A DNA stretch of 64,000 bases from an uncultured Candidatus Saccharibacteria bacterium (GTDB lineage: Bacteria > Patescibacteriota > Minisyncoccia > Phycocordibacterales > UBA1006), in assembly GCA_964415895.1 (NCBI GenBank), contig CAYQCC010000003.1:3053-67052 (forward strand), written 5' to 3'. The first letter of the stretch is position 1, and every line of letters begins with the position of its first letter. Below, piece after piece: positions 18,184 through 58,775 of the stretch. Below the pieces are notes generated by a model. That model was not told the origin of the DNA, did no database searches, and saw nothing but the letters and a program-made list of their open reading frames with translations. Position numbers and translations under genes: made by a program.

Positions 18184-18582
18184 TTATTTTTGTATCATTT
18201 CCAAACGTCCTTTTCGCTTTGTGATATTTTTATAATCCCATTGAATCTCTTTCGCTTTTTTCAGCCATCGCTTCAAGTGAGTAATCTTTATTTGTTTTAG
18301 ATCTGCATAATTTATCTCTGCTGCCTTAAAAGATCCTTCTGGTTTTAAATCTGGTTCATCGAATGATTGTCCACTCCAAAATAGTAATTGAACATCACCT
18401 TTCTTTCTCACCCAATATCCAACAATGGGATTTTCATCAATAAACCATACGGGTCTGCCGTGCCAGACTTTTGAAGTGCTTTTCTTAAGACTGGCATTAA
18501 TAGTAGTTTCCAGAACATCACAGATTTCTTTGATGTTCTTTGGTTGAGATTTATTGTATTCAGTAATGGTTTTAGTGTTCAT
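18184..18582 (-). CDS. Hypothetical protein, 132 aa
   Basis: ORF track only. Confidence 0.4.
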   Translation of the reverse strand: MNTKTITEYNKSQPKNIKEICDVLETTINASLKKSTSKVWHGRPVWFIDENPIVGYWVRKKGDVQLLFWSGQSFDEPDLKPEGSFKAAEINYADLKQIKITHLKRWLKKAKEIQWDYKNITKRKGRLEMIQK

Positions 18583-18586
18583 ATGA

Positions 18587-19723
18587 TTATATTTCGTAAT
18601 CTATTTTTAATTGCTTAATAAATTTATTATGCGTATTTATATTAACTGCTTGTTTCCATAGCCCAAACCCTTCTTTTACATGAGGGTTATCTAAGTCAAA
18701 GTTTTTTGAAATCTTGCTAATGTCTTTGTGTAATCTTTTTTGCTCATTTTTAAGCCATTCAATAATCTCTTTAATAATACTGTGTTGCTTTAGGAATGCA
18801 TGAACTTTCATCGGTAAGTCCTTATTGACGTACTCTCCTGTATTAGCAGCAGTAACCACTTCATTAAATAGATCAGGGTCTGTATCTTGAGCTATTTTCA
18901 GAAGTTTGTAAGTAGGTTCGGTCATTCGATCAGAAATAATATCTTTCATATAGTCTTCGCCTGCAATCTTTTCAGCAGTTGTTATTTCCTTGTTCGGAAT
19001 CATAAAGTCTGAAGCATTATTTATTGCCTGTAGATGAAGACCGTTCTGATAACATATTTTAAAGATGTTTTCCTTTTTTCCTTTAAATAAATCCTGATTC
19101 TCAGAAGGATCAAATTCTCTGGTTATAATTTCAAAACACATTTGATAAAGAGTTCCATTAGTAAATCCGCCGACACTGTTATCCATCTTCCAGAAATTAT
19201 TCTCGGTCATAGTATTGAAATCTTTGAACCGCGTGAAATTCTCACTTGCATATCCTAGAGCACTATTTGAGAACCAAGTATCGAATATAAACAACTTCGT
19301 ACTGTCTTGTAATGGAAGTTTCAGGATATCGTGATGCATTAAATAGCCTAATGTGATCAAGTCTGACATTCTTTGCTTCGGATCTTTTGTTCCAATATTT
19401 TTATTATCAAGAATCCAGTTATATGTATATGATGACCACATGCATAATTCTATGGCTGCCATAGATGGTAATAGCTCCTTAATTGTAATCTCTTTACCGA
19501 GCAATATCTTGGCAGCAATATAAACCCAATTTGCACGAACATGTCCTTTTTTAACTTTCAATTTCCGCTTTAAAATATAGTCTTCATAAAGCGCTTCGAC
19601 AAAATTGCCTTCGATGATTTTATCGAATACTGGCGTTTCCATTGAATGATAGAAGTCGAGCAAATACTGGTTTAGCTCTGCTCCGATTTCTTCACTTATC
19701 TTGTAATAATCTGGTTGATTCAT
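18587..19723 (-). CDS. Hypothetical protein, 378 aa (possibly alpha-helical terpenoid-synthase-like fold; unverified)
   Basis: ORF track; no definitive motif. Confidence 0.4.
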   Translation of the reverse strand: MNQPDYYKISEEIGAELNQYLLDFYHSMETPVFDKIIEGNFVEALYEDYILKRKLKVKKGHVRANWVYIAAKILLGKEITIKELLPSMAAIELCMWSSYTYNWILDNKNIGTKDPKQRMSDLITLGYLMHHDILKLPLQDSTKLFIFDTWFSNSALGYASENFTRFKDFNTMTENNFWKMDNSVGGFTNGTLYQMCFEIITREFDPSENQDLFKGKKENIFKICYQNGLHLQAINNASDFMIPNKEITTAEKIAGEDYMKDIISDRMTEPTYKLLKIAQDTDPDLFNEVVTAANTGEYVNKDLPMKVHAFLKQHSIIKEIIEWLKNEQKRLHKDISKISKNFDLDNPHVKEGFGLWKQAVNINTHNKFIKQLKIDYEI

Positions 19724-19876
19724 AACTTTGTGGAGAGTTGAGGCAGTGAACCCCTTGCATAGATACCTCTATACTTAGCTACAATTAGCACTCCCCAATA
19801 CCACGATTATACTCAAAGCCTCCTTAAAGGAAAGATGTATACCTAAAATACTCTTTTTAGGCTAAACTATACTTAT

Positions 19877-20128
19877 ATGACACAGAAAAAGGTTTCCTCT
19901 GGAACCGTTCACAAATTACCTCTTGATTTGCGCCAAGCTATTATTAGCTCACCTAAAGTTTATGCTTTATGGGAAGACATCACACCGCTTGCTCGTAATG
20001 AATGGATCTGCTGGGTCACTTCTGGCAAGCTTGCGGAAACACGAGGTATTCGCATTGCAAAAGCAATTTCCAAAATGTCAGGCGGAATGCGCCGACCATG
20101 CTGTTGGGCAGGATGTACTCATCGGTAA
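19877..20128 (+). CDS. Small hypothetical protein (YdeI/OmdA-like?)
   Basis: 83-aa ORF; weak family resemblance only. Confidence 0.3.
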   Translation: MTQKKVSSGTVHKLPLDLRQAIISSPKVYALWEDITPLARNEWICWVTSGKLAETRGIRIAKAISKMSGGMRRPCCWAGCTHR

Positions 20129-20161
20129 AATACAATTTATAATTAAGACTAGAAACCCTTT

Positions 20162-20500
20162 ATGATCACTTATGAAGATTTTGAAAAAGTTGATATCCGC
20201 GCTGGAAAAATTATCAATGTCGAAGACTTCCCAGAAGCTCGAAAACCAGCTTTCAAGCTAACAATCGATTTCGGTCCAGAGATTGGAATAAAACGATCAA
20301 GCGTTCAATTGCCAGGAACGTATGTAAAAGAAGAATTGCAAAACATGCTAGTTGTATGCGTGGTAAACTTTCCACCAAAGCGCATTGATACGTTCGTATC
20401 GGAAGTTCTTACGCTTGGATTTAAGAATACCGACGGACAAGGATATGTATTGGTTTCACCATCCAAATCAAGCATTGAACTTGGTGATAAGCTTTGTTAA
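20162..20500 (+). CDS. csaA: tRNA-binding domain protein (CsaA/EMAP-type OB fold)
   Basis: 'DIRAGKIINVEDFPEARKPAFKLTIDFG' is typical of CsaA/MetRS C-terminal tRNA-binding domain. Confidence 0.65.
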   Translation: MITYEDFEKVDIRAGKIINVEDFPEARKPAFKLTIDFGPEIGIKRSSVQLPGTYVKEELQNMLVVCVVNFPPKRIDTFVSEVLTLGFKNTDGQGYVLVSPSKSSIELGDKLC

Positions 20501-20522
20501 TAAAAAACACCGTAGGTGTTTT

Positions 20523-21284
20523 TTATTTTTTGAATGACAGCTTACTTTCTTTTAGCGCTTTCCTTAATACTGGAATTGCGCTTGGCCCAATGCCATGGAG
20601 GCTCATCAATTCTTTTTCAGTCCACTTTGATAAATCTTTTAAATTCTTTATCTTTGCATTTTCAAGTGCACGAGTCGCTGGTGCAGAAATCTTTTCAAAC
20701 ACGCTTGTTAGTTTCATTTCTGTGACCTTATAAGCCTTTCCTTTTGAATCATAGGTCGTCCATGTCCCCCTTTGAATTCCTTTGTCAAAAGTTCCTGATC
20801 GCATTTTTGTTCCGTCCTTCCGAAACCATTCCCAGTATCCATCCATTGTTTTACCAGTAAGTTTTCCTTTCGCCCACATACTTCCGTCTGCATGATAATG
20901 TGTGTAATTACCTGAAGGGCTTTTCTTTGGTGCTTTCTTTACAGATTCTTTCAATCTAAATTTTGTTATCTTTCCAATTAGTGCCAAAGGAGGTTGTTTG
21001 TTAACCGGAAAACGAACACAGCCTTTTGACGTTGAATAACCTGAAAGTTCCTTTTCAAATTTCACAATTGCAGACGGTGCTGGATAAAAACCGATGTGAG
21101 TTTTATAGCCAGCAAAGTGTACAAGATTCTCGTCATTCAGCCGAAATGTCGGCATACCATATCGAATTGCTTCCTCTGCACCAGGAATAGCTTTGTTGAT
21201 CGTCATTCGCATAGACTGCAGTGTGACTTGCATATCTTTCGGAAATGATTTGATGTATTGATCGATGGTCTTATAGTCTTTCAT
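20523..21284 (-). CDS. DUF1801(YdhG)-like N-domain fused to MORN-repeat and helix-hairpin-helix C-region; hypothetical
   Basis: MORN-like 'YHADGSMWAKGKL...GYWEWFRKDGTKMRSG'; C-terminal HhH 'LHGIGPSA'. Confidence 0.45.
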   Translation of the reverse strand: MKDYKTIDQYIKSFPKDMQVTLQSMRMTINKAIPGAEEAIRYGMPTFRLNDENLVHFAGYKTHIGFYPAPSAIVKFEKELSGYSTSKGCVRFPVNKQPPLALIGKITKFRLKESVKKAPKKSPSGNYTHYHADGSMWAKGKLTGKTMDGYWEWFRKDGTKMRSGTFDKGIQRGTWTTYDSKGKAYKVTEMKLTSVFEKISAPATRALENAKIKNLKDLSKWTEKELMSLHGIGPSAIPVLRKALKESKLSFKK

Positions 21285-22162: not shown

Positions 22163-22225
22163 ATAAATAAGTATAGTAAAGTATTACTTTACTGACAAGT
22201 CTTATATTGACATTTTGTTGTAGAT

Positions 22226-49492: not shown

Positions 49493-50701
49493 ATGACAAC
49501 AAAGAATCCCGAACAAATCAATGAATTTTTAAGCCGAGGAGTTGAAGCAATTCTTCCTTCTCGTGATTTTGTCGAATCACAACTTACTTCAGGAAAGCAA
49601 CTGACTGTCTATCTGGGAATCGACCCAACAGGACCAACTCTTCATATTGGTCATGCTATTGCGATGAAAAAATTGGCACAGTTGCAGAACTTGGGACATA
49701 AAATCATTTTGTTAATGGGAGATTTCACAGCAAAGATTGGCGATCCTACTGATAAATTGGCTGCTCGAAAAACTCTTACAACGGAAGAGATTATGGAGAA
49801 TTTGAAGAACTACAAACAACAGGCCTCAAAGATTATTTCATTCAGCGGAGACAATGCGGCAGAAATCAAATTCAACTCAGAATGGTTAGGCAAGATGAAT
49901 TTTGCAGATGTATTAGAACTCGCATCAAAGACAACAGTTCAGCGTATGCTTGAACGCGACATGTTTCAAAAACGCATCGAGGAAGGAAAACCAATCTACG
50001 TACATGAATTCATGTATCCATTAATGCAGGGACAGGACAGTGTTGCAATGGATGTTGATGGTGAAATCGGCGGAAACGATCAATTATTCAACATGTTAAT
50101 GGGTCGCGAACTATTAAAAGACTCTGGTAAGGAAAAGTTCGTCGTTACTGTAAAACTCCTTGCAGATCCAACAGGAAAGAAAATGGGTAAATCTGAAGGT
50201 AACATGATCACACTTGATGATTCTGCAGACAGTATGTTTGGAAAAATCATGTCGTGGAGTGATGGAATGATTATTGGTGGATTTGAATTGTGTACTGATA
50301 TTCCACGCGAACAAATTCTGCAAATCGAACTTGCTATTCAAAATAATGAAAATCCAATTCAGTTCAAGAAACAATTGGCGCGCGAGATCATCACGATCTA
50401 CCACAGCGCGGACCAGGCAATGGACGCACAGAACAATTGGGAAAAGACATTTTCAGAGGGTGGACTGCCTGATGTCGTTGCCGAAATTAATGGAGAACAG
50501 AGGAAATTGCTTTCTGAAGTATTGGTTGAAAACGGATACCTTGAATCCAAAGCGGAATTTCGGCGATTAACAGACGAGGGCGGAATTAAAATTATTTCTG
50601 AAGACTTATCTGAAGAAAAGATTACAGATTTCCAGTATAAGTTATCTGAAACAGTTGTGTTGAAGATTGGAAAGAAAAAGTTTGTGAAAGTTATTATATA
50701 A
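49493..50701 (+). CDS. tyrS: Tyrosyl-tRNA synthetase with C-terminal S4-like domain
   Basis: 'GIDPTGPTLHIGH' (HIGH), 'KMGKS' (KMSKS), 402 aa. Confidence 0.9.
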   Translation: MTTKNPEQINEFLSRGVEAILPSRDFVESQLTSGKQLTVYLGIDPTGPTLHIGHAIAMKKLAQLQNLGHKIILLMGDFTAKIGDPTDKLAARKTLTTEEIMENLKNYKQQASKIISFSGDNAAEIKFNSEWLGKMNFADVLELASKTTVQRMLERDMFQKRIEEGKPIYVHEFMYPLMQGQDSVAMDVDGEIGGNDQLFNMLMGRELLKDSGKEKFVVTVKLLADPTGKKMGKSEGNMITLDDSADSMFGKIMSWSDGMIIGGFELCTDIPREQILQIELAIQNNENPIQFKKQLAREIITIYHSADQAMDAQNNWEKTFSEGGLPDVVAEINGEQRKLLSEVLVENGYLESKAEFRRLTDEGGIKIISEDLSEEKITDFQYKLSETVVLKIGKKKFVKVII

Positions 50702-50727
50702 AAAGCACCTAATGGTGCTTTTTATAT

Positions 50728-51612
50728 TTAAAACAAATCAAACTTTTCACGAAGCTCTCGTGGAATATGAAATTCGGTTGATATCCGCTTGCGAAGCTTT
50801 TTTGCTTTTAATTCATCATATTCTACGGTCATATTTATTGGTCCTGGTTTTAGGAATCTTGGCTTCAAGATATCAAAAAGTTCTTTTTCCGATTGAGATG
50901 TTCCGTATGCAAAATCAAGAACGCGAGAAATAGTTGACGATGTTTTAGTTGTAATAATATAAGGACCAATTATTGAATAATGCTCCCTCCTTGTAAAGGG
51001 GTATTTTTTAGTGAATGAAAAATGTTCAAAACCTGACCGCTCTTTATTACTATTTTTATCAAAAACAGTAACGCCACCTATTAACGTGAAAACGTGCTTT
51101 TCTTTTTCTGAAAAGATTTCTCGGTATTCTTTTTCACTTGAACCTCTTCCAGGAACTAAGTACCAAAAATTATGTGGATTACTGTGGAATACTGGAAAAT
51201 CACCTAATTCATCATGAATATCATTAATAGTATGTTTCCAAAACATATCCATATGGTCTATTTTTGAGAATCGATACACAACTTGTTCTCCTGGAAAAAG
51301 CCTGAATGTTCTTCTGTTTGAAATTGCACTATTTACCTTATTTCTCCAAACATTACTAATTATAAAGCTCTTTCTTTGTTTTGTAACAACATCTCCTTTT
51401 ATCAACTCTCGTAGGTTTTTATATACACCTTCAAGAGTAACACTCTCTTTCAATACTTGTTCGAGGCTTTTCTGTAACTCAATGGCGCTAAGTGGTTTTT
51501 CAATAAGAAGCTCAATAATAACGTCTCGTATTGTTTTTTTGGAAGAGAAGATCATATATATCAGTATATAAAAATACAACTTTTTGTTCAAATTTAATAT
51601 AAAAAGTACCAT
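50728..51612 (-). CDS. wHTH-like ~280-aa protein, paralog family member 2 (likely start MIFSSKK at ~51555)
   Basis: C-terminus 'KKLRKRISTEFHIPRELREKFDLF' nearly identical to paralog 3. Confidence 0.5.
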   Translation of the reverse strand: MVLFILNLNKKLYFYILIYMIFSSKKTIRDVIIELLIEKPLSAIELQKSLEQVLKESVTLEGVYKNLRELIKGDVVTKQRKSFIISNVWRNKVNSAISNRRTFRLFPGEQVVYRFSKIDHMDMFWKHTINDIHDELGDFPVFHSNPHNFWYLVPGRGSSEKEYREIFSEKEKHVFTLIGGVTVFDKNSNKERSGFEHFSFTKKYPFTRREHYSIIGPYIITTKTSSTISRVLDFAYGTSQSEKELFDILKPRFLKPGPINMTVEYDELKAKKLRKRISTEFHIPRELREKFDLF

Positions 51613-51616
51613 TTAA

Positions 51617-52333
51617 ATGAAAAAAGTCAATATCCTTGTTATGCTTCCCTTGTCTATGAAACAAGATTTATCAAAACAATACAACGCTTTTGCTCAAGAC
51701 TTTATTTCCGAGATTAGTCACAGTAATAACATTTCTCGAAATGAGTTTTATAAAAAAATACCAAGAGACCTTACTAGCCTTAAGGTTCTCGATCTAGCAT
51801 GTGGTGATGGGAGTGATATATTTGAATATAAAAAAAGAGGTGCAATCTGTTCTGGTTGCGACTCATCCGAAGAATTAATAAAAGTTGCACGACAAAAAAT
51901 TGGAGATTCTATTGATTTACAAGTACAAGATATGCGCTCTACTTCTTATAATGACCAATCCTTTGATATGGTATTTAGTAAATATGCGATTGGTACTGTT
52001 GATGTTATTTCTGATGTGTATGATGAGGTTTCAAGAATAATCAAGCCAGGCGGATTATTTGTTTTTCTTACAACACACCCTATGCGTCTTTTCCTTGAAA
52101 ATAAAAATGAGACGAAGGATTATTTTATTCAAGAATCTGTCCCTTTAGAATGCTTTAATAGGAAATTTATTATCACCGAACCATCTCACACATTTAATGA
52201 ATTCTTTAGCCGTCAATTCTTCAAGAATTTTGAATTACTGGACTTTACTGAGCATTATGACCCACAATCAGCGTCTTTTAATGGTCGAGATATTTACCCA
52301 GATTTTTTTATTGTGGTAGCTCAAAAAAAATAA
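51617..52333 (+). CDS. Class I SAM-dependent methyltransferase
   Basis: Motif I 'VLDLACGDGSD'. Confidence 0.7.
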   Translation: MKKVNILVMLPLSMKQDLSKQYNAFAQDFISEISHSNNISRNEFYKKIPRDLTSLKVLDLACGDGSDIFEYKKRGAICSGCDSSEELIKVARQKIGDSIDLQVQDMRSTSYNDQSFDMVFSKYAIGTVDVISDVYDEVSRIIKPGGLFVFLTTHPMRLFLENKNETKDYFIQESVPLECFNRKFIITEPSHTFNEFFSRQFFKNFELLDFTEHYDPQSASFNGRDIYPDFFIVVAQKK

Positions 52334-52335
52334 TT

Positions 52336-53001
52336 ATGAAACAAAACCTAACAAAACAATATAATGGAATTGCTAACACATTTAATGTAAGTAATAACAA
52401 TTTCAACCGATTCAGCAACACAGAATTCTTTTCTCACCTCCCAGAAGATTTGAGCGGTAAGAAGCTGTTAGATGTTGGCTGTGGTGATGGAAATGATTTT
52501 GAGGAATATCAAAACAAGGGAGCCGATGTATATGGAACTGACGCTTCGGAAGAATTAATTAACCTTTCAAAATTTAAAGAAAAGATAATATTAGGATCTT
52601 TTGATTCAATACCCTTCGAAAAAGAACATTTCGATGTTGTTGTTAGTAAATACGCTCTGCAAACCTCAGCTGAAATTGACCCTTTTTACAATGAATCGGC
52701 GCGTATTTTAAAACAAAATGGAGAACTTCTTTTTCTAGTAGTTCATCCTATGCGCCAATTTTTTGAGAAAAAAACCCACCATAAAGATTATTTTGATAAA
52801 ACGGTAGTAGATTCCAGTATTTTTAATGGAACCATTACTGTAAAAGAGCCAACACATACAATGCAAGAATATCTCAGTGAAACATTCTTTAATGAATTTA
52901 CTCTTGAATCCATATATGAGGGTTGTGATTTCTATTCTGCTGAAAAAATTGGTTCAAATGACTATCCAACATATCTTATTATTAAAGCTCACAAGAAATA
53001 A
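52336..53001 (+). CDS. Class I SAM-dependent methyltransferase (paralog)
   Basis: 'LLDVGCGDGND'; C-terminal 'YPTYLIIKAHKK' shared with 54442..55152. Confidence 0.7.
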   Translation: MKQNLTKQYNGIANTFNVSNNNFNRFSNTEFFSHLPEDLSGKKLLDVGCGDGNDFEEYQNKGADVYGTDASEELINLSKFKEKIILGSFDSIPFEKEHFDVVVSKYALQTSAEIDPFYNESARILKQNGELLFLVVHPMRQFFEKKTHHKDYFDKTVVDSSIFNGTITVKEPTHTMQEYLSETFFNEFTLESIYEGCDFYSAEKIGSNDYPTYLIIKAHKK

Positions 53002-53003
53002 TT

Positions 53004-53537
53004 ATGAATATTGCAATTATATCTTCCGCAGACGAGAGAACTTCACGTCAATATACCAAACCTACGAAAGATCTTATTTTAAAGCTTGGAAAGTCTTTTT
53101 CAAATCTTAAGATTATAACAGGCGGTTCACTTGGAATTCCAGGGATTGCAGTTAAGCACGCCCAGGCATTAGGCATTGCAACTAAATGTTATTCACCTGA
53201 TAAAAACTCTCGGGCACATGAATTGCGCGACGACAACCTAAAAACTAAATATTTTTCAGAGATAGTTTATATACCTGGATTTACAAATCGTAGCTTACGT
53301 ATGATTAATGATGCTGAGGGTATTATTTTACTCAACGGTCGCATTGGAACACTATCTGAATTCACTATCGCACTGGAAGAGGGTAAGAAAATTGCCGTAC
53401 TCACTGAAACAGGTGGTGTAGCAGATCATTTGGAATATATTTTAGATATAGCTCAAAAAGAATTCCCTGGGCAAACCTTTTTTTCTGACAATATTTCTGA
53501 AATTATTAACTTTTTAAAACAAGAACCTACTGAATAG
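53004..53537 (+). CDS. LOG/SLOG-superfamily Rossmann protein (TIGR00725-like)
   Basis: 'TGGSLGIPGIA' and 'NGRIGTLSEF' correspond to LOG GGGxxGLM and PGGxGTxxE motifs. Confidence 0.6.
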   Translation: MNIAIISSADERTSRQYTKPTKDLILKLGKSFSNLKIITGGSLGIPGIAVKHAQALGIATKCYSPDKNSRAHELRDDNLKTKYFSEIVYIPGFTNRSLRMINDAEGIILLNGRIGTLSEFTIALEEGKKIAVLTETGGVADHLEYILDIAQKEFPGQTFFSDNISEIINFLKQEPTE

Positions 53538-53546
53538 GTTCTTGTT

Positions 53547-54374
53547 TTAAAATAGATTAAATTTTTCCCTTAATTCCTTTGGAATATAAAAATCTTTCGA
53601 TAATTTCTTTCTTAGTTTTTTCGCCTTTTCCTTATTTCTCTCGATAATCAATTTTACTTTTTTCGTCTGGAAATCTATTTTCTGGATGTTTTGTTCTAAT
53701 TCATTAATATTTTTTGCTATTTTATAACATTCTTCTATTTCTTGAACTGTTTTTTTTGAAAGCTGTGTAGTAATAATATATTCATTAAATATCGCTATAT
53801 AGCCAGATTTATCCAGTGGTATACTATCAATATAAATACGAACATATTCGCTTTCAATTATTTTTTTTGTTTCTATTTCTAGTGGTGAATTAGATCCAAC
53901 TAATGAAAATGCAAATTTCTTATCTCGGATAAAGGATTTATAGTATTCAATTTCAGATTTTTTTCGAGATTCTCCTAAATGAATCCATATATAGTGGTAG
54001 TTGTAGAAAAAAATGGGGTCATTAGTATATTTTTCATGTAAAGGAAGTACAATATTTTTCCATTGAATATCGTGGTGATTAAGCGATGAGAGTATATAAA
54101 TATATTGTTCCCCTTCATTAATTTCAAAATCTTTTTCTTGTCCTAACTCTCTAATTACTTGTTGTTGCCATTCTTTATTTAATGAGTACTTAGTCCCTCT
54201 TTTAAAAACTATTTCTTGCTCTAATAAATCTCGTAAAACAACATATAATGCCTGAATCGTATACTTCCCATGCTCTTGTTTGATCTTTGAAAGCATATGT
54301 TTTGCAGTACTTTCAGATATTATTAAGCTTTTCACAATTAAATCCTCAATGTGTGCTTTTTTGGAGAATAACAT
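53547..54374 (-). CDS. wHTH-like 275-aa protein, paralog family member 3
   Basis: See paralogs; C-terminus 'KKLRKKLSKDFYIPKELREKFNLF'. Confidence 0.5.
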   Translation of the reverse strand: MLFSKKAHIEDLIVKSLIISESTAKHMLSKIKQEHGKYTIQALYVVLRDLLEQEIVFKRGTKYSLNKEWQQQVIRELGQEKDFEINEGEQYIYILSSLNHHDIQWKNIVLPLHEKYTNDPIFFYNYHYIWIHLGESRKKSEIEYYKSFIRDKKFAFSLVGSNSPLEIETKKIIESEYVRIYIDSIPLDKSGYIAIFNEYIITTQLSKKTVQEIEECYKIAKNINELEQNIQKIDFQTKKVKLIIERNKEKAKKLRKKLSKDFYIPKELREKFNLF

Positions 54375-54441
54375 AGCTTTATAATATCATATTTTTAAAA
54401 TAATTTTTTAAAAATATATCATAAAACAACATTATTTTGAT

Positions 54442-55152
54442 ATGTCAATTATTTTCAGGTATAGTTACTTTGCTATGAAAAAAATAACTAACCAATATAA
54501 TAATTTTTCTGAAACATACTCAAAAAATGTTAATTATGACAAAAAAAGCAATGTTGCCTTTTATCAACATATTGATTTTAACCTTACTAATAAAAAATTA
54601 TTAGACATAGGTTGTGGTGATGGTGTGGATTTATATAAATTTCAAAAATTAGGTGCTGTTGTGTATGGAATTGATCCAAGTAAAGAATTTATCGATATAT
54701 CAAAGAAAAATAACCCAACTGGAATATTAAAACAAGGCATGGCGGAATTAATACCCTTTAATAATGAAACATTTGATGTTGTAGTATCTAAATGGGCACT
54801 ACAAACATGTTCTGATCTTCCAAAAGTATTATATGAAGTAGGTCGAGTACTAAAAAAGAATGGATTATTTGTATTACTTTCTAAGCATCCCTGGATGCAG
54901 TGGATGGAAAAAAATAGGGATTATGGCAATGGTGTAGATTATTATGAACAAAAAATTGTAACTTCTAATATTTATGAGGGAAAAATTGTTTTAAAAGAAC
55001 CAACACATACAATTAATGACTATTTGAATTCTGAATTTTTAAACCAATTTGAAATAATGTCTTATGAAGAAAATACTGATTTTCCTGCAAGCGAACAAAT
55101 TGATGGGAAAATTTATCCTACCTATTTTATAATTAAGGCTCGTAAAAAATAA
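54442..55152 (+). CDS. Class I SAM-dependent methyltransferase (paralog)
   Basis: 'LLDIGCGDGVD'; 'YPTYFIIKARKK'. Confidence 0.7.
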   Translation: MSIIFRYSYFAMKKITNQYNNFSETYSKNVNYDKKSNVAFYQHIDFNLTNKKLLDIGCGDGVDLYKFQKLGAVVYGIDPSKEFIDISKKNNPTGILKQGMAELIPFNNETFDVVVSKWALQTCSDLPKVLYEVGRVLKKNGLFVLLSKHPWMQWMEKNRDYGNGVDYYEQKIVTSNIYEGKIVLKEPTHTINDYLNSEFLNQFEIMSYEENTDFPASEQIDGKIYPTYFIIKARKK

Positions 55153-55154
55153 TT

Positions 55155-55703
55155 ATGAAAATAGCCATCTTTAGTTCGTGGTTACCAGAGATTACTCAGG
55201 AAAATAGAGACCTTATAGTTAAGATAAGTGAATACTTATGCAGTAAAAATATAACCGTTGTTACGGGTGGTTGCAGCGGAATACCGGCGCTCGCGATAGA
55301 AACTGCGTTTAACCTAAAAAATAAAACAATGGGTTACTTCCCATTAAAAGATCAGCAAGATTATTTTGATCGACAGCACGAGAAAAATATTCACTGTATT
55401 GATTTTTATTCAACTGCTCATTTTGTTGCAGGGTTTACCGCGCGAAGTCTTGAAATGATTAAAAATGTCGACGCAGCCATAGTTTTAAATGGTCGTATTG
55501 GAACACTATCTGAATTCGGCATTGCAATCGAAGAAGGCTTACCCCTTGCTGTCATCGAAGGAACGGGTGGAGTTAGTAATGAACTGCGCACTATCGTGAC
55601 TGTCGCGCAAAAGGAACTTCCAAATAATGAAGTTATTTTTGAAAAGAATTATAAAAAAGCAATTGATAAATTAATCGAAAACTACAATCTAAAAACCGCT
55701 TAG
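55155..55703 (+). CDS. LOG/SLOG-superfamily Rossmann protein (paralog of 53004..53537)
   Basis: 'TGGCSGIPALA', 'NGRIGTLSEFGIAIEEG'. Confidence 0.6.
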   Translation: MKIAIFSSWLPEITQENRDLIVKISEYLCSKNITVVTGGCSGIPALAIETAFNLKNKTMGYFPLKDQQDYFDRQHEKNIHCIDFYSTAHFVAGFTARSLEMIKNVDAAIVLNGRIGTLSEFGIAIEEGLPLAVIEGTGGVSNELRTIVTVAQKELPNNEVIFEKNYKKAIDKLIENYNLKTA

Positions 55704-55714
55704 GCGGTTTTTAG

Positions 55715-55984
55715 TTACATAATCCTTTTAATCACCAACTTCATCCCATGTTCTTTCAGATGCTTGTTCAAATCATCCATGCACGGTTCGCATTGCGCGG
55801 AGAACTTGGCGCGGATAATAGGGGAGACATGCAGCTGGATCATGTTTTTCGTAAGGATAATATCTTTTCGATCTATTTCAATGCTGCAGTTTTCTTTCAG
55901 ATACTTCATTAGAAAATCACGCACACGTGTTTCAGTGGGAATTCCTCTTGCAACTATAGGTAGTAATTCAAGGAAAGATTTCAT
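55715..55984 (-). CDS. Hypothetical protein, 89 aa
   Basis: ORF track only. Confidence 0.35.
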   Translation of the reverse strand: MKSFLELLPIVARGIPTETRVRDFLMKYLKENCSIEIDRKDIILTKNMIQLHVSPIIRAKFSAQCEPCMDDLNKHLKEHGMKLVIKRIM

Positions 55985-55994
55985 AATAAGTTAA

Positions 55995-57104
55995 TTAGTT
56001 TCGATTTAATGGCATGATCAGATACAAGAATGTATTATCATGCTGTCCGCGTACAATTAATGGTTTTTTAGGGTCTAACCATTCAAAGAACAATGAATCA
56101 CTTTGAATAATATTAATTCCTTCTTGGATTTGCTGAGCAGATAATCCAACCTCGATTGAATTTCCCTCGATCACCGCATCAAGCGTCGTATGAATTTCAC
56201 CAACACTTGTGTTCTCGGCGTGAAACAAAACTGTTTTATCTTCCGCACTCACTGTCATGGTGATGTGGTGGTAGTGGTTTGAAAAGAGGGGAATGGTTTT
56301 TAATAGATGAACCAGGTCGTTTCGCAGGATAATTACTTGAGTTGTGTGGGTTGTTGGAATAATTTTTGTATAGTCTGGAAAATTTCCATGGGTCAGCTGC
56401 GCAGTAATAAAGATATTTTGTGTTTGTAGGTAGATCTGATGATCGTTTACTGAAAGTATTACGTCCTCGTCTGAGTCTGCTAGAATTTTGATAATATCCT
56501 GAGCATTTTTAATTGGGAGTAGGAACGACCCAATGGATTCTGCGTTTATAAAGGCAATTTTCTTTTCTGCGAGGCGAAACGCGTCAGTGGCTACAAAATA
56601 AAGATTATTCTCCTTGCCAGTAATGTAAATACTTGATAATTCTGGCTTAATATCACTGTTTGATCCAGCGAATAACACTGACTTCATGCCTGATAGTAAG
56701 TCTGATACAGGAAGTGTTATCTGCGTGTCACCATCAACCTTTTTAGGAAGTTCTGGAAAATCGTCTACCGGGAAAGTTTTAAGCTTACTTTTTGATTTTT
56801 TGGTCTTGATATGAAAAATATCACCTTCTGTTTCGCATGTAATAGTTTCTTGGTGAGGAATACCAGAAAGAACTTGTGAGAAGTAGCTTCCAGGTAGAGC
56901 ACATACACCAGGTTCGTCGACTTTTGCTGAAATAGTTATTTCTGCACCCGTGTGTAAGTTGGTAGATCTAAATACTACCTTTCCATCAGTTGTTGCAGTA
57001 CATAAGATGCATGACAGCACTGGAAGTGTTGGATGCTTTCCTGTCACCTTTTCAGTTTTTGTGATTGCAGAGAATATTTTCTCATGAGAGCATTCGAATT
57101 TCAT
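55995..57104 (-). CDS. dnaN: DNA polymerase III beta sliding clamp
   Basis: 369 aa; three-domain clamp pattern; directly downstream of dnaA. Confidence 0.85.
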   Translation of the reverse strand: MKFECSHEKIFSAITKTEKVTGKHPTLPVLSCILCTATTDGKVVFRSTNLHTGAEITISAKVDEPGVCALPGSYFSQVLSGIPHQETITCETEGDIFHIKTKKSKSKLKTFPVDDFPELPKKVDGDTQITLPVSDLLSGMKSVLFAGSNSDIKPELSSIYITGKENNLYFVATDAFRLAEKKIAFINAESIGSFLLPIKNAQDIIKILADSDEDVILSVNDHQIYLQTQNIFITAQLTHGNFPDYTKIIPTTHTTQVIILRNDLVHLLKTIPLFSNHYHHITMTVSAEDKTVLFHAENTSVGEIHTTLDAVIEGNSIEVGLSAQQIQEGINIIQSDSLFFEWLDPKKPLIVRGQHDNTFLYLIMPLNRN

Positions 57105-57386: not shown

Positions 57387-58775
57387 TTATGTTTGCAACA
57401 TGGCACGAATTTGTTCGATATCATGAATTAAGTTTGGACTCTCTGTTAGTTCGCGTGTAATCTTTTCATATGAGTGCATTACGGTTGTATGATCGCGTCC
57501 TCCTAATTTCTTTCCTATATGAGGGAATGAGATACTGTAATCTTCTCGTAAAATATACATAGCCACCTGGCGTGCCTCAACAATTTCTTTTCTACGATTC
57601 TTTTCATACATAGATGCTTCTTCAAGGTTATAAAAATGTGCCACTACCTTTACAATATCTTCCAATGAAATATTTCGTTTTGGTTTAATATTATTTTTAA
57701 TAAGAAGTTTTATTTCTTGAATATTTAATTCTCTTTTCCGTAATTCCATCTGCATAATAAGGGTGTTAATAATACCCTCTAATTCGCGAATATTACCCTC
57801 TACATGGCTCGCAATGTAATCAATTGACTCTTCGGTTAGTTGGAAATTATGAGCCTTTAATTTTGATTGTAGGATCGCACTACGAGATTCATATTCTGGA
57901 CGAGCCATATCAACAGTCATTCCGGCAGAAAATCTTGATTTTAAACGATCTTCTAGGCCTACAATATAGTTTGGGTGCTTATCAGAAGAGAATATTAACT
58001 GACGGTTCCTATCATGAAGTGTGTTAAATAAATGGAATAATTCTTCTTGAACCTTCTCTTTTCCTGCTGAGAAAAATTGAATATCATCCATAATTAATAC
58101 ATCACAAGTTCTATATTTCTCTTTAAATTGGTTTATACGGTTTGTTTGAAGTGATGAGACATAATCCATCAGGAATTTTTCAGAACTTGTATAAAAGACG
58201 TTCAAGTTTGGATTACTTGCAACCATTGCGTTCCCTACTGCTTGAACAAGGTGAGTTTTTCCAATTCCTGTTGACCCGTAAATAAATAATGGATTAAATG
58301 ACCCAGGTTTTTTAATAACAGCCTGAGCCGCAGAATACGCAACTTCATTAAATGATCCAATAATAAATGTTTCGAATGTATATTTTGGATTTAGATTATT
58401 TTTTCTTGGTACTGAATGGTCAAGTGGTAATTCTTGCATAATCTCCTTCTCCATCTTTTCTTGTTCTGTGGCAATTGGCGCAGTAACCACCTTTGTTGGT
58501 TTTTTTGCAATAATAAATTCAACTGACCTAATATTTTCTCGATGACTGCGGATAGATTTTAATACTTCGCGACTAAATTTTGTCGCAAGCCAGTCCTTAA
58601 TAAACTCATTAGGTACGCCCACAAAAAAAACGCCGTCCTCCTCGCGCACTGCGTGAGTATTTTTGAACCACGTTGTAAAATTGGCCTTTGAAACGGACAA
58701 TTCTATTTCAGCGAGTACGGTTTCCCAAAGGTTTGTGACATCCTGCATACACGTTAAAAGAGAGTTACTGAGCAC
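57387..58775 (-). CDS. dnaA: Chromosomal replication initiator DnaA
   Basis: Walker A 'GSTGIGKTHL', sensor and box VII regions, C-terminal DNA-binding 'HTTVMHSYEKI'. Confidence 0.9.
   Translation of the reverse strand: MLSNSLLTCMQDVTNLWETVLAEIELSVSKANFTTWFKNTHAVREEDGVFFVGVPNEFIKDWLATKFSREVLKSIRSHRENIRSVEFIIAKKPTKVVTAPIATEQEKMEKEIMQELPLDHSVPRKNNLNPKYTFETFIIGSFNEVAYSAAQAVIKKPGSFNPLFIYGSTGIGKTHLVQAVGNAMVASNPNLNVFYTSSEKFLMDYVSSLQTNRINQFKEKYRTCDVLIMDDIQFFSAGKEKVQEELFHLFNTLHDRNRQLIFSSDKHPNYIVGLEDRLKSRFSAGMTVDMARPEYESRSAILQSKLKAHNFQLTEESIDYIASHVEGNIRELEGIINTLIMQMELRKRELNIQEIKLLIKNNIKPKRNISLEDIVKVVAHFYNLEEASMYEKNRRKEIVEARQVAMYILREDYSISFPHIGKKLGGRDHTTVMHSYEKITRELTESPNLIHDIEQIRAMLQT

Follow-up and report, generated by a model that had tools for sequence, protein, structure and literature searches.

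Divergent regulator, methyltransferase and SLOG cassettes near dnaN of an uncultured Patescibacteria genome: candidate repressor-gated operons for nucleotide methylation and base release

We have analysed a 64,000-nucleotide stretch of DNA (the window) from an uncultured Candidatus Saccharibacteria bacterium, contig CAYQCC010000003.1, in which two neighbouring gene cassettes, A and B, occupy positions 50728–55703 close to dnaN. Each has a gene for a regulator with a winged helix-turn-helix (wHTH) and, divergent to it, an operon encoding one or two S-adenosylmethionine (SAM)-dependent methyltransferases and a LOG-like protein of the family SLOG cluster 4. We propose that the cassettes are repressor-gated operons whose enzymes methylate a nucleotide and release its base, a reading to which we give a probability of about 45%. 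The regulatory architecture and the character of the cassettes as units are considerably more secure than the chemistry. The seven open reading frames (ORFs) have the coordinates and orientations that a first-pass annotation of this DNA had given them:

A1, 50728..51555, minus strand: regulator, 275 aa (gene call on the public contig and family alignment)
A2, 51617..52333, plus strand: class I SAM-dependent methyltransferase of small-molecule type, opening the A operon (Methyltransf_11, E 4e-18)
A3, 52336..53001, plus strand: second class I SAM-dependent methyltransferase (Methyltransf_11, E 4.5e-18)
A4, 53004..53537, plus strand: SLOG cluster 4 (LOG-like) protein, predicted nucleotide N-glycosidase (PF18306, 46.8 bits)
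B1, 53547..54374, minus strand: regulator, 275 aa (AlphaFold2 model with a predicted local distance difference test score, pLDDT, of 88)
B2, 54442..55152, plus strand: class I SAM-dependent methyltransferase of small-molecule type (Methyltransf_11, E 6e-21)
B3, 55155..55703, plus strand: SLOG cluster 4 (LOG-like) protein, predicted nucleotide N-glycosidase (PF18306, 56.0 bits)

The length of the first regulator needs a small correction: A1 is most likely 275 residues long, starting at 51555, rather than the ORF of 294 residues, because the start of the latter lies upstream both of the start common to the homologs and of the one chosen by the gene caller. For A2, Met14 at 51656 may be the true start. 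At three junctions in the window, that between A2 and A3 included, a TAA stop is followed 2 nt on by ATG, inside a common junction, AAATAATTATGAA. The cassettes are paralogous, as had been claimed, with protein pairs of 29–43% identity and E values of 1e-31 to 1e-62 in pairwise blastp (A1/B1, 29%, E 1e-31; A3/B2, 43%, E 7e-62; A4/B3, 40%, E 2e-34); A2 is 41% identical to A3 and 33% to B2. The motifs quoted in the first-pass annotation are there: the regulator tails read KAKKLRKRISTEFHIPRELREKFDLF in A1 and KAKKLRKKLSKDFYIPKELREKFNLF in B1, and NGRIGTLSEF is found in both A4 and B3. Those quoted for the methyltransferases, LLD(V/I)GCGDG and YPTY(L/F)IIKA(H/R)KK, hold for A3 and B2, whereas A2 deviates at both (VLDLACGDG, YPDFFIVVAQKK).

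Related loci, designated by L numbers, were fetched from genomes and metagenomes; those with a name belong to the Patescibacteria (Minisyncoccia, Nomurabacteria, Falkowbacteria) and some of the bins are labelled otherwise. In essentially every related locus that includes upstream DNA the regulator gene is divergent to a Methyltransf_11 gene (L003, L005–L012, L014–L019, L021, L024 and L027). A SLOG cluster 4 gene comes directly next in most of these loci, and the flanking genes are wholly different. The linkage is thus conserved, and the homologs are not scattered without linkage, the outcome against which the first-pass annotation had set its proposal. The triad recurs even when the search is made with distant SLOG homologs of 40–45% identity on long contigs (L018, L019 and L021), where the regulators are 26–29% identical and the flanking genes again unrelated; a further locus, L020, has the methyltransferase and the SLOG protein without the regulator. 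A deaminase gene upstream of the pair in L020 was considered as a pyrimidine deaminase, for which we found no support, its best match being TadA. The enzyme operons come in the following variants:

Methyltransferase and SLOG cluster 4: L003, L005, L007 (twice), L008, L015
Two methyltransferases and SLOG cluster 4: window cassette A, L010, L011, L027
Second methyltransferase type, ThyA paralog and a LOG-like protein of 212 aa, with a serine hydroxymethyltransferase (SHMT) in two of the three: L012, L014, L025
B2-like methyltransferase, second methyltransferase type and a LOG-like protein: L009
RlmN/Cfr-like radical SAM gene and methyltransferase: L016
Methyltransferase alone: L017

The assignment of A2, A3 and B2 as SAM methyltransferases stands, all matching Methyltransf_11 (PF08241) with 66–75 bits against a cut-off of 21.2. 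In the family alignment motif I reads LDxGCGDG, and D55, G59 and D112 are among the invariant residues. The model of B2 (pLDDT 88.8) has a Rossmann fold, nearest to the uncharacterised structural-genomics methyltransferases 3g5l, 3l8d, 3bkw and YcgJ and next to the natural-product methyltransferases CypM, AtmM, RebM, MitM and ToxA; the lid of the B2 family has many invariant polar residues. Judged from the fold neighbours of the model, B2 looks like a small-molecule enzyme. The structure search for a substrate brought up generic small-molecule methyltransferases only. B2 has at least 139 homolog clusters, and the few with a named source come from the candidate phyla radiation or from unclassified metagenome bins.

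The SLOG/LOG-like Rossmann assignment of A4 and B3 is likewise borne out by PF18306 (SLOG cluster 4, LDcluster4), with 46.8 and 56.0 bits, respectively, against a cut-off of 26.3 bits, and all of the listed SLOG homolog clusters carry this domain. The two are not canonical housekeeping LOG or ‘lysine decarboxylase’ proteins, an identity that the first-pass annotation had named as fatal to its proposal: they fall below the cut-offs of both PF03641 and TIGR00730 (for the latter 18.1 and 13.5 bits against 96.35). They have in common with LOG (cytokinin riboside 5'-monophosphate phosphoribohydrolases) and PpnN-type proteins the Rossmann-like fold class, the GG..G loop and an Arg and a Glu that align with the catalytic pair of LOG; they differ from LOG proper in scoring below those models, in having NGR for PGG and in belonging to the uncharacterised SLOG cluster 4. 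In the alignment of B3 with the LOG structure 5zbj, ARS coincides with ARK, which holds the catalytic Arg, and GTLsE with GTLeE, which holds the Glu. No variation is seen across the SLOG family in the Gly, Thr and Glu of GxGTxxE or in the GG..G loop, and the Arg is conserved; the first loop is TGG(C/S)xGIP as against the GGGxxGxMG of LOG. The only solved relative found by sequence is an unannotated Thermotoga protein (PDB 1rcu, E 8e-6 with B3). With 70–79% identity to its orthologs, B3 is better conserved than the other two cassette proteins. A literature search on TIGR00725 and PF18306 returned nothing relevant.

In the LOG family, enzymes such as PpnN act as nucleosidases on nucleotides in general. 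A pairing of methyltransferases with a LOG enzyme is familiar from the fas/mtr locus of Rhodococcus fascians, where two SAM methyltransferases and the LOG enzyme FasF lead to methylated cytokinins, the locus being regulated and its product a methylated purine-base signal, and the cassettes similarly pair one or two methyltransferases with a LOG-type protein. The methyltransferases of the fas locus reportedly act on isopentenyl diphosphate and not on a nucleotide, and, unlike that locus, the cassettes are without isopentenyltransferase, cytokinin oxidase and P450. In contrast to cytokinin LOG loci, the window has no isopentenyltransferase or other cytokinin gene near the cassettes.

The wHTH, regulator-like assignment of A1 and B1 also holds. 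In the B1 model a winged helix at the N terminus is followed by an alpha/beta domain at the C terminus, the architecture also assigned to A1, where a basic tail is added. Its eight best PDB matches are all chains of TrmBL2, aligned at full length over ~285 columns with E 4e-7, followed by PadR and other winged-helix regulators. TrmBL2 of the Thermococcales (PDB 5bpd, 5bpi, 5bqt, 5box) appears to have a like two-domain architecture and a like length (~260–275 aa), whereas the TM-score is only ~0.35. Unlike TrmBL2, the regulators are found in Patescibacteria and have a conserved basic C-terminal tail, KAKKLRKK...ELREKFDLF; they appear to use a single local palindrome, whereas TrmBL2 is a chromatin protein, and there is no indication of sugar binding. 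By sequence the regulator has no Pfam, NCBIfam or PDB match: the TrmB winged helix (PF01978) is seen in 1 of 37 family members at E 0.026 and in none of the 37 at threshold, a search of PDB sequences with the regulator profile gave only Fur at E 0.19, and among 94 homolog clusters at 90% identity (~275 aa) there is no Pfam model save in one fragment of 180 aa that matches FUR (PF01475).

A1 and a third paralog, C1, align at full length with this family. Of representatives clustered at 50% identity, 2,005 match the profile with E <=1e-3 and 1,260 with E <=1e-10, and the best 150 matches are nearly all full length. The superfamily thus delimited appears to be a large, lineage-expanded family of general local regulators of these bacteria, within which the methyltransferase linkage belongs to the subfamily with the KAKKLRKK tail. 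More distant regulators of this tail subfamily face a methyltransferase of MTS type (L031) or TehB type (L032), and in L030 (2109–4311) one is divergent to an operon for a 157-aa protein of no known family, an adenylosuccinate-synthetase-like protein that is short at 335 aa, and a protein of the Ham1/ITPase family; this operon is another nucleotide-metabolism partner of the subfamily. The idea that the whole regulator family senses SAM is weakened by distant members whose partners are periplasmic binding proteins or an FtsX permease. The TrmB Pfam domain itself is carried by paralogs that neighbour distant family members. In L035 (1966–6976) distant members are divergent to Peripla_BP_6 solute-binding proteins, in three pairs set in tandem beside TrmB-domain paralogs. 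In L037 (2–2465) a member has two neighbours on the same strand (253 and 284 aa, alike in size only) and then an FtsX-type permease.

The third wHTH-like paralog, to which the first-pass annotation had alluded, lies elsewhere in the window and is divergent to a fusion gene, with a palindrome at 22175–22193 between the two:

C1, 21317..22162, minus strand: regulator paralog, 281 aa (tblastn, 25% identity to A1, E 4e-16)
C2, 22226..23128, plus strand: 300 aa, with an S-adenosylmethionine decarboxylase-like domain fused to a SET-domain methyltransferase (PF02675, E 1e-14; PF00856, E 3e-7)

C2 is below the cut-off of TIGR03330, and its first domain keeps an AES motif that resembles a self-processing site. 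Standalone SET proteins are seen near the cassettes in L010 and L017. Beside the C cassette, at 18184–21284, are a protein of 378 aa without a family match and two proteins, of 132 and 253 aa, that have a DUF1801 domain.

The divergent intergenic regions of A, B and C measure 61–67 bp only, and each contains a putative operator:

B operator (putative), 54389..54417, no strand: perfect palindrome ATATTTTTAAAA-TAATT-TTTTAAAAATAT with 12-nt arms, from a palindrome scan
C operator (putative), 22175..22193, no strand: AGTAAAG-TATTA-CTTTACT, a perfect palindrome within the 63 bp that separate C1 and C2
A operator (putative), 51575..51591: imperfect palindrome TTGAAC-AAAAA-GTTGTA in the minus-strand reading

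The core of the B palindrome is TTTTAAAA-N5-TTTTAAAA (P ~0.0025 against shuffles), and this motif has its sole match in the 64-kb window here, with 0.04 expected. The C palindrome too is the only exact match in the window, and the A site is the sole window match to the degenerate pattern TTGAACNNNNNGTTSWA, which was made from the site itself (0.10 expected). Counted over the whole window, perfect inverted repeats that have a 5-nt spacer between arms of >=7 nt number only 16; apart from those of B and C, most look like terminator hairpins. The palindromes lie over promoter-like hexamers. That of B covers the -35 (TTTAAA) of the B2 promoter found in a promoter scan and extends into its -10; a mirror-image B1 promoter, read from the symmetry of the site and absent from the promoter-scan list, would be covered as well. 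In A the left half-site TTGAAC is the -35 of the A1 promoter, with a 17-nt spacer and TATACT.

Uniqueness and position are conserved in the related loci. The B motif is carried by L001–L008 and occurs exactly once per locus in 8 of 21 loci, as does TTAAAC-N5-GTTTAA, also in 8 of the 21; every copy of both palindrome classes starts 20–50 bp upstream of the start codon of the regulator gene and none is found anywhere else. Related palindromes in 16 fetched loci (14 distinct), one each, lie just upstream of the regulator gene. Such unique palindromes argue for a site-specific local regulator and not for a chromatin protein. In the recognition helix, the residue that comes after an invariant Tyr goes with the type of half-site: it is Lys/Arg where this is ..AAC, Val/Asn where it is TTTTAAAA and Leu where it is AGTAAAG. 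As judged from these sequence features, the regulator would be an autoregulated local repressor that gates both promoters, and the regulators of A, B and C would have diverged in operator specificity. Because the operators differ among the cassettes, coexistence without cross-talk would be possible. An Rfam scan of the window found three transfer RNAs (tRNAs) only and no riboswitch, which argues against sensing of SAM or nucleotides at the RNA level.

We infer the following course of events, in which repression, ligand, substrate, the order of the two reactions and product are all part of the proposal. The TrmB/TrmBL2-like regulator would bind, as a dimer, a palindrome with half-sites of 7–8 bp and a 5-bp spacer; this overlaps the -35 of its own promoter and that of the divergent enzyme operon, so that both would be repressed. 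A ligand bound to the C-terminal domain would lift the repression, the candidates being the substrate of the pathway, its product or a SAM-related metabolite. The methyltransferase (two in cassette A) would then methylate a polar small substrate, a nucleoside 5'-monophosphate or its base, and the closely abutting SLOG cluster 4 protein would cut the N-glycosidic bond to give a methylated nucleobase and ribose 5-phosphate. The A, B and C cassettes and the variants listed above would be old versions of diverged specificity, exchanged at a variable slot between tyrS and dnaN.

The proposed chemistry is extended to the window by analogy from three sister cassettes that have regulators of the same subfamily, three different gene orders, a ThyA paralog (L014, 5680–6516; L012, 6412–7251; L025, 2701–3531) and, in L014 and L025, SHMT. 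At four active-site motifs these paralogs differ from true ThyA, with PND for PFN, KR for RR, PPCP for PPCH and GQIELYENH for GDxHxYxNH. That they are merely housekeeping thyA genes is unlikely in view of these four changes, whereas the ThyA of L017, beside dihydrofolate reductase and an ORF which on a reading of its sequence is dUTPase/dCTP-deaminase-like, is canonical. The NCBI model TIGR03284 would still name the sister paralogs thymidylate synthase. The change of PFN to PND is one of Asn to Asp; an Asp here is common to the cytosine-nucleotide enzymes MilA, BcmA and T4 dCMP hydroxymethylase, and Asn marks those that use uracil (PMC5175136). We therefore predict the sister paralogs to be a methylase or hydroxymethylase of cytosine nucleotides. 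In the route to bacimethrin, a ThyA-like hydroxymethylase acts on cytidine 5'-monophosphate (CMP), an N-glycosidase frees 5-hydroxymethylcytosine, and a methyltransferase leads to bacimethrin (PMC4081090, bioRxiv 10.1101/2025.04.17.649140). The bacimethrin and mildiomycin pathways (BcmA/MilA, BcmB/MilB, BcmC) follow the same logic as the one proposed here, in which a pyrimidine nucleoside monophosphate is modified, its base set free and SAM used for methylation, and the three sister cassettes have a full gene set analogous to that for bacimethrin, the SHMT of two of them being extra. They differ in having a LOG-type candidate glycosidase where MilB/BcmB is a member of the nucleoside 2'-deoxyribosyltransferase family. 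Compared with the phage and antibiotic hydroxymethylases, the cassette ThyA paralog is also much closer to true ThyA than expected (E 1e-58 to PDB thymidylate synthases). Among the Pfam matches listed for the window cassette proteins there is none to the deoxyribosyltransferase family, and the candidate glycosidase is of SLOG/LOG type. With this backing from sister cassettes that carry a cytosine-type ThyA paralog and usually SHMT, the nucleotide or small-molecule modification pathway suggested in the first-pass annotation is the best reading that we have.

Several observations weigh against it. Within the window there is no ThyA-like sequence anywhere, this gene being present only in L012, L014 and L025. 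No enzyme of the window cassettes fixes the substrate, and genes for a ThyA-like protein, a kinase or a transporter are absent from them. The methyltransferases match generic families only and their closest structures are uncharacterised; against the NCBIfam equivalogs (UbiE/MenG, BioC, DVU_1556, UbiG, ArsM and others) they reach 41–63 bits at best where the cut-offs are 103–420. A4 and B3 score 23.8 and 16.0 bits against PF03641, below its threshold of 27, and 33.4 and 42.3 bits against TIGR00725, far below the cut-off of 106.9, although some source databases label SLOG homologs as TIGR00725 all the same. In both the LOG motif is changed from PGG to NGR (NGRIGTLSE), and SLOG domains may be sensors of ligands and not enzymes, as in ThsA. 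The regulator is uninformative about the chemistry, since its superfamily pairs with solute-binding proteins and an FtsX permease as well. On the regulatory side, the A operator is an imperfect palindrome, no better than shuffles and weaker than those of B and C, and the operators of the most distant loci (L018, L019 and L021) are not clearly alike. The correlation of the recognition-helix residue with the half-site is confounded by phylogeny. Our choice of repression over activation comes solely from the overlap of the palindromes with promoters.

The first-pass annotation called cassettes A and B tandemly duplicated, a misleading term for what are old paralog lineages: A, B and C are each nearer to cassettes of other genomes than to one another. 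A recent tandem duplication was rejected, as the neighbour-joining tree of the regulators groups A1 with L017, B1 with L005/L007a and C1 with L019. The enzymes behave similarly. Those of A type have orthologs of 50–55% identity in L010, L011 and L027 (52–55% for A2), closer than cassette B, and those of B type are 55–79% identical to their counterparts in L003, L005, L008 and L015. Regulator modules have therefore recombined with enzyme modules, seeing that A1 is not grouped with the L010 and L011 regulators. The slot from tyrS to a small ORF by dnaN differs in content among close relatives. In L014, a close relative (dnaN fragment 97% and tyrS 91% identical), a regulator, a methyltransferase and a LOG-like protein occupy it together with the ThyA paralog and SHMT; in L005 it holds one B-type cassette, whose methyltransferase is broken up into two ORFs, perhaps as a pseudogene and perhaps through an error of assembly; and in L007 it holds two cassettes. 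In all three the cassettes are oriented opposite to the two-cassette segment of the window. The cassette region has a GC content of 0.31, the lowest in the window. The two cassettes are bordered as follows:

50700..50723, no strand: hairpin AAAAAGCACC-TAAT-GGTGCTTTTT between the convergent tyrS and A1 (sequence and inverted-repeat arms); likely a bidirectional terminator and the left edge of cassette A
53512..53552: perfect inverted repeat (arms 18 nt, loop 5 nt) spanning the ends of the convergent genes A4 and B1; probably terminates transcription in both directions and parts cassettes A and B
55689..55714: terminator-like hairpin AAAAACCGC-TTAG-GCGGTTTTT 3' of B3, the right edge of cassette B
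55715-55984, minus strand: small conserved ORF of 89 aa between B3 and dnaN
55995-57104: dnaN
57387-58775: dnaA, the next gene

Adjacency to dnaN, as first described, thus needs qualifying, since the small ORF intervenes between B3 and dnaN. It has no family match, is 44–66% identical in L005, L006, L014, L022 and L023, and lies directly downstream of dnaN in relatives whatever cassette adjoins. A1 is also bracketed by a 21-nt inverted repeat (50711–50731 and 51593–51613, 90% complementary), one arm of which overlaps the tyrS terminator while the other directly precedes the start codon of A2; this repeat could be what is left of a terminator that was duplicated, or of an earlier rearrangement.

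Four other accounts of the cassettes were weighed against methylation and base release. The LOG-like enzyme might hydrolyse scavenged, perhaps modified, nucleoside monophosphates to base and ribose 5-phosphate for salvage, catabolism or sanitation of the pool, so as to supply carbon metabolism or clear modified nucleotides that are not wanted, with the methyltransferase an accessory that marks or detoxifies the base. Small-genome bacteria of this kind depend on salvaged nucleotides, the PpnN-like LOG enzymes are general nucleosidases, TrmB-family regulators classically govern sugar metabolism and ribose 5-phosphate would be a product, and the family member of L030 faces an operon with Ham1 (ITPase) and adenylosuccinate-synthetase-like genes. 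Salvage leaves unexplained, however, the strict pairing and abutment of methyltransferase and SLOG genes and the second methyltransferase of cassette A; the sister ThyA paralog and SHMT build a modification rather than remove one, and a cassette that is accessory and varies between near-identical genomes would be unusual for core salvage. We consider this account rather unlikely. A very unlikely one is that the substrate is no nucleotide and the SLOG protein a nucleosidase for S-adenosylhomocysteine (SAH) or methylthioadenosine that relieves product inhibition of the methyltransferase. It would suit the adenine N-glycosides on which LOG enzymes act and the range of SAM enzymes of unrelated folds that adjoin the regulator subfamily (Methyltransf_11, TehB-type, MTS-type, SET and RlmN/Cfr-like), which makes the use of SAM their common denominator; but the phosphate-binding GG..G loop is conserved and a 5'-phosphate is absent from SAH, a SLOG gene is missing from many of the family's methyltransferase cassettes (L016, L017, L031, L032), and the sister LOG-like protein travels with a folate-dependent ThyA paralog.

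The first-pass annotation had hinted at conflict or signalling, in which the SLOG protein would sense or process a nucleotide signal, the methyltransferase modify the target or the signal and the wHTH protein act as the switch. SLOG domains do recur in defence systems, and a low-GC slot that varies among close relatives and diversified paralogs are both typical of defence islands. The cassettes nevertheless have no effector domain (SIR2, TIR, nuclease or transmembrane), and the SLOG protein is their most conserved component and keeps residues that align with the catalytic ones of hydrolases. A scan of PADLOC-DB 2.0 gave a generic methyltransferase domain (mad2) and a weak ThsA SLOG match (E 1e-4 and 1e-3), with none for the regulators and no system beyond generic domains, and viral contigs scanned with the regulator profile and B3 yielded no homologs, so that the hint is left without support and this account is still less probable than removal of a by-product. 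The finding is neither an artefact nor a known defence system. Least probable is modification of a macromolecule, the methyltransferases acting on ribosomal RNA, tRNA or protein (the lysine-rich tail of the regulator, for example) with the SLOG protein as a DprA-like nucleic-acid-binding partner. For it one may cite the DprA match of B3 (PF02481, 22 bits), the pairing of C1 with a SET-domain lysine methyltransferase and the SET proteins near two other cassettes, the RlmN/Cfr-like gene of L016, and TrmBL2 being a chromatin protein. The DprA matches are sub-threshold, however, as expected of cross-matches within the SLOG superfamily, the fold neighbours of the methyltransferases are small-molecule enzymes, and the unique palindromes fit a site-specific local regulator better than a chromatin protein.

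In these cassettes three uncharacterised families, namely the regulator (~2,000 clusters at 50% identity), a methyltransferase clade and SLOG cluster 4, come together as one compact and widely conserved unit of the Patescibacteria, a group in which most genes have no known function, and the unit offers a precise predicted operator and a simple two-enzyme chemistry. If that chemistry is right, it would give SLOG cluster 4 a function, show that LOG-type enzymes can stand in for glycosidases of MilB type where a base is released, and suggest that reduced bacteria make modified nucleobases. The sister cassettes could yield bacimethrin-like compounds; which organisms produce bacimethrin in the environment is not settled (PMC12637900). 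A bolder version, which we regard as decidedly unlikely, is that Patescibacteria carry swappable cassettes by dnaA–dnaN, each with its own repressor, that make methylated nucleobases as antimetabolites or signals directed at hosts or competitors, the ThyA variants making bacimethrin-like thiamin antivitamins and the methyltransferase–SLOG variants other methylated bases. Were it true, it would give SLOG cluster 4 its first function and reveal an unsuspected environmental source of antivitamins.

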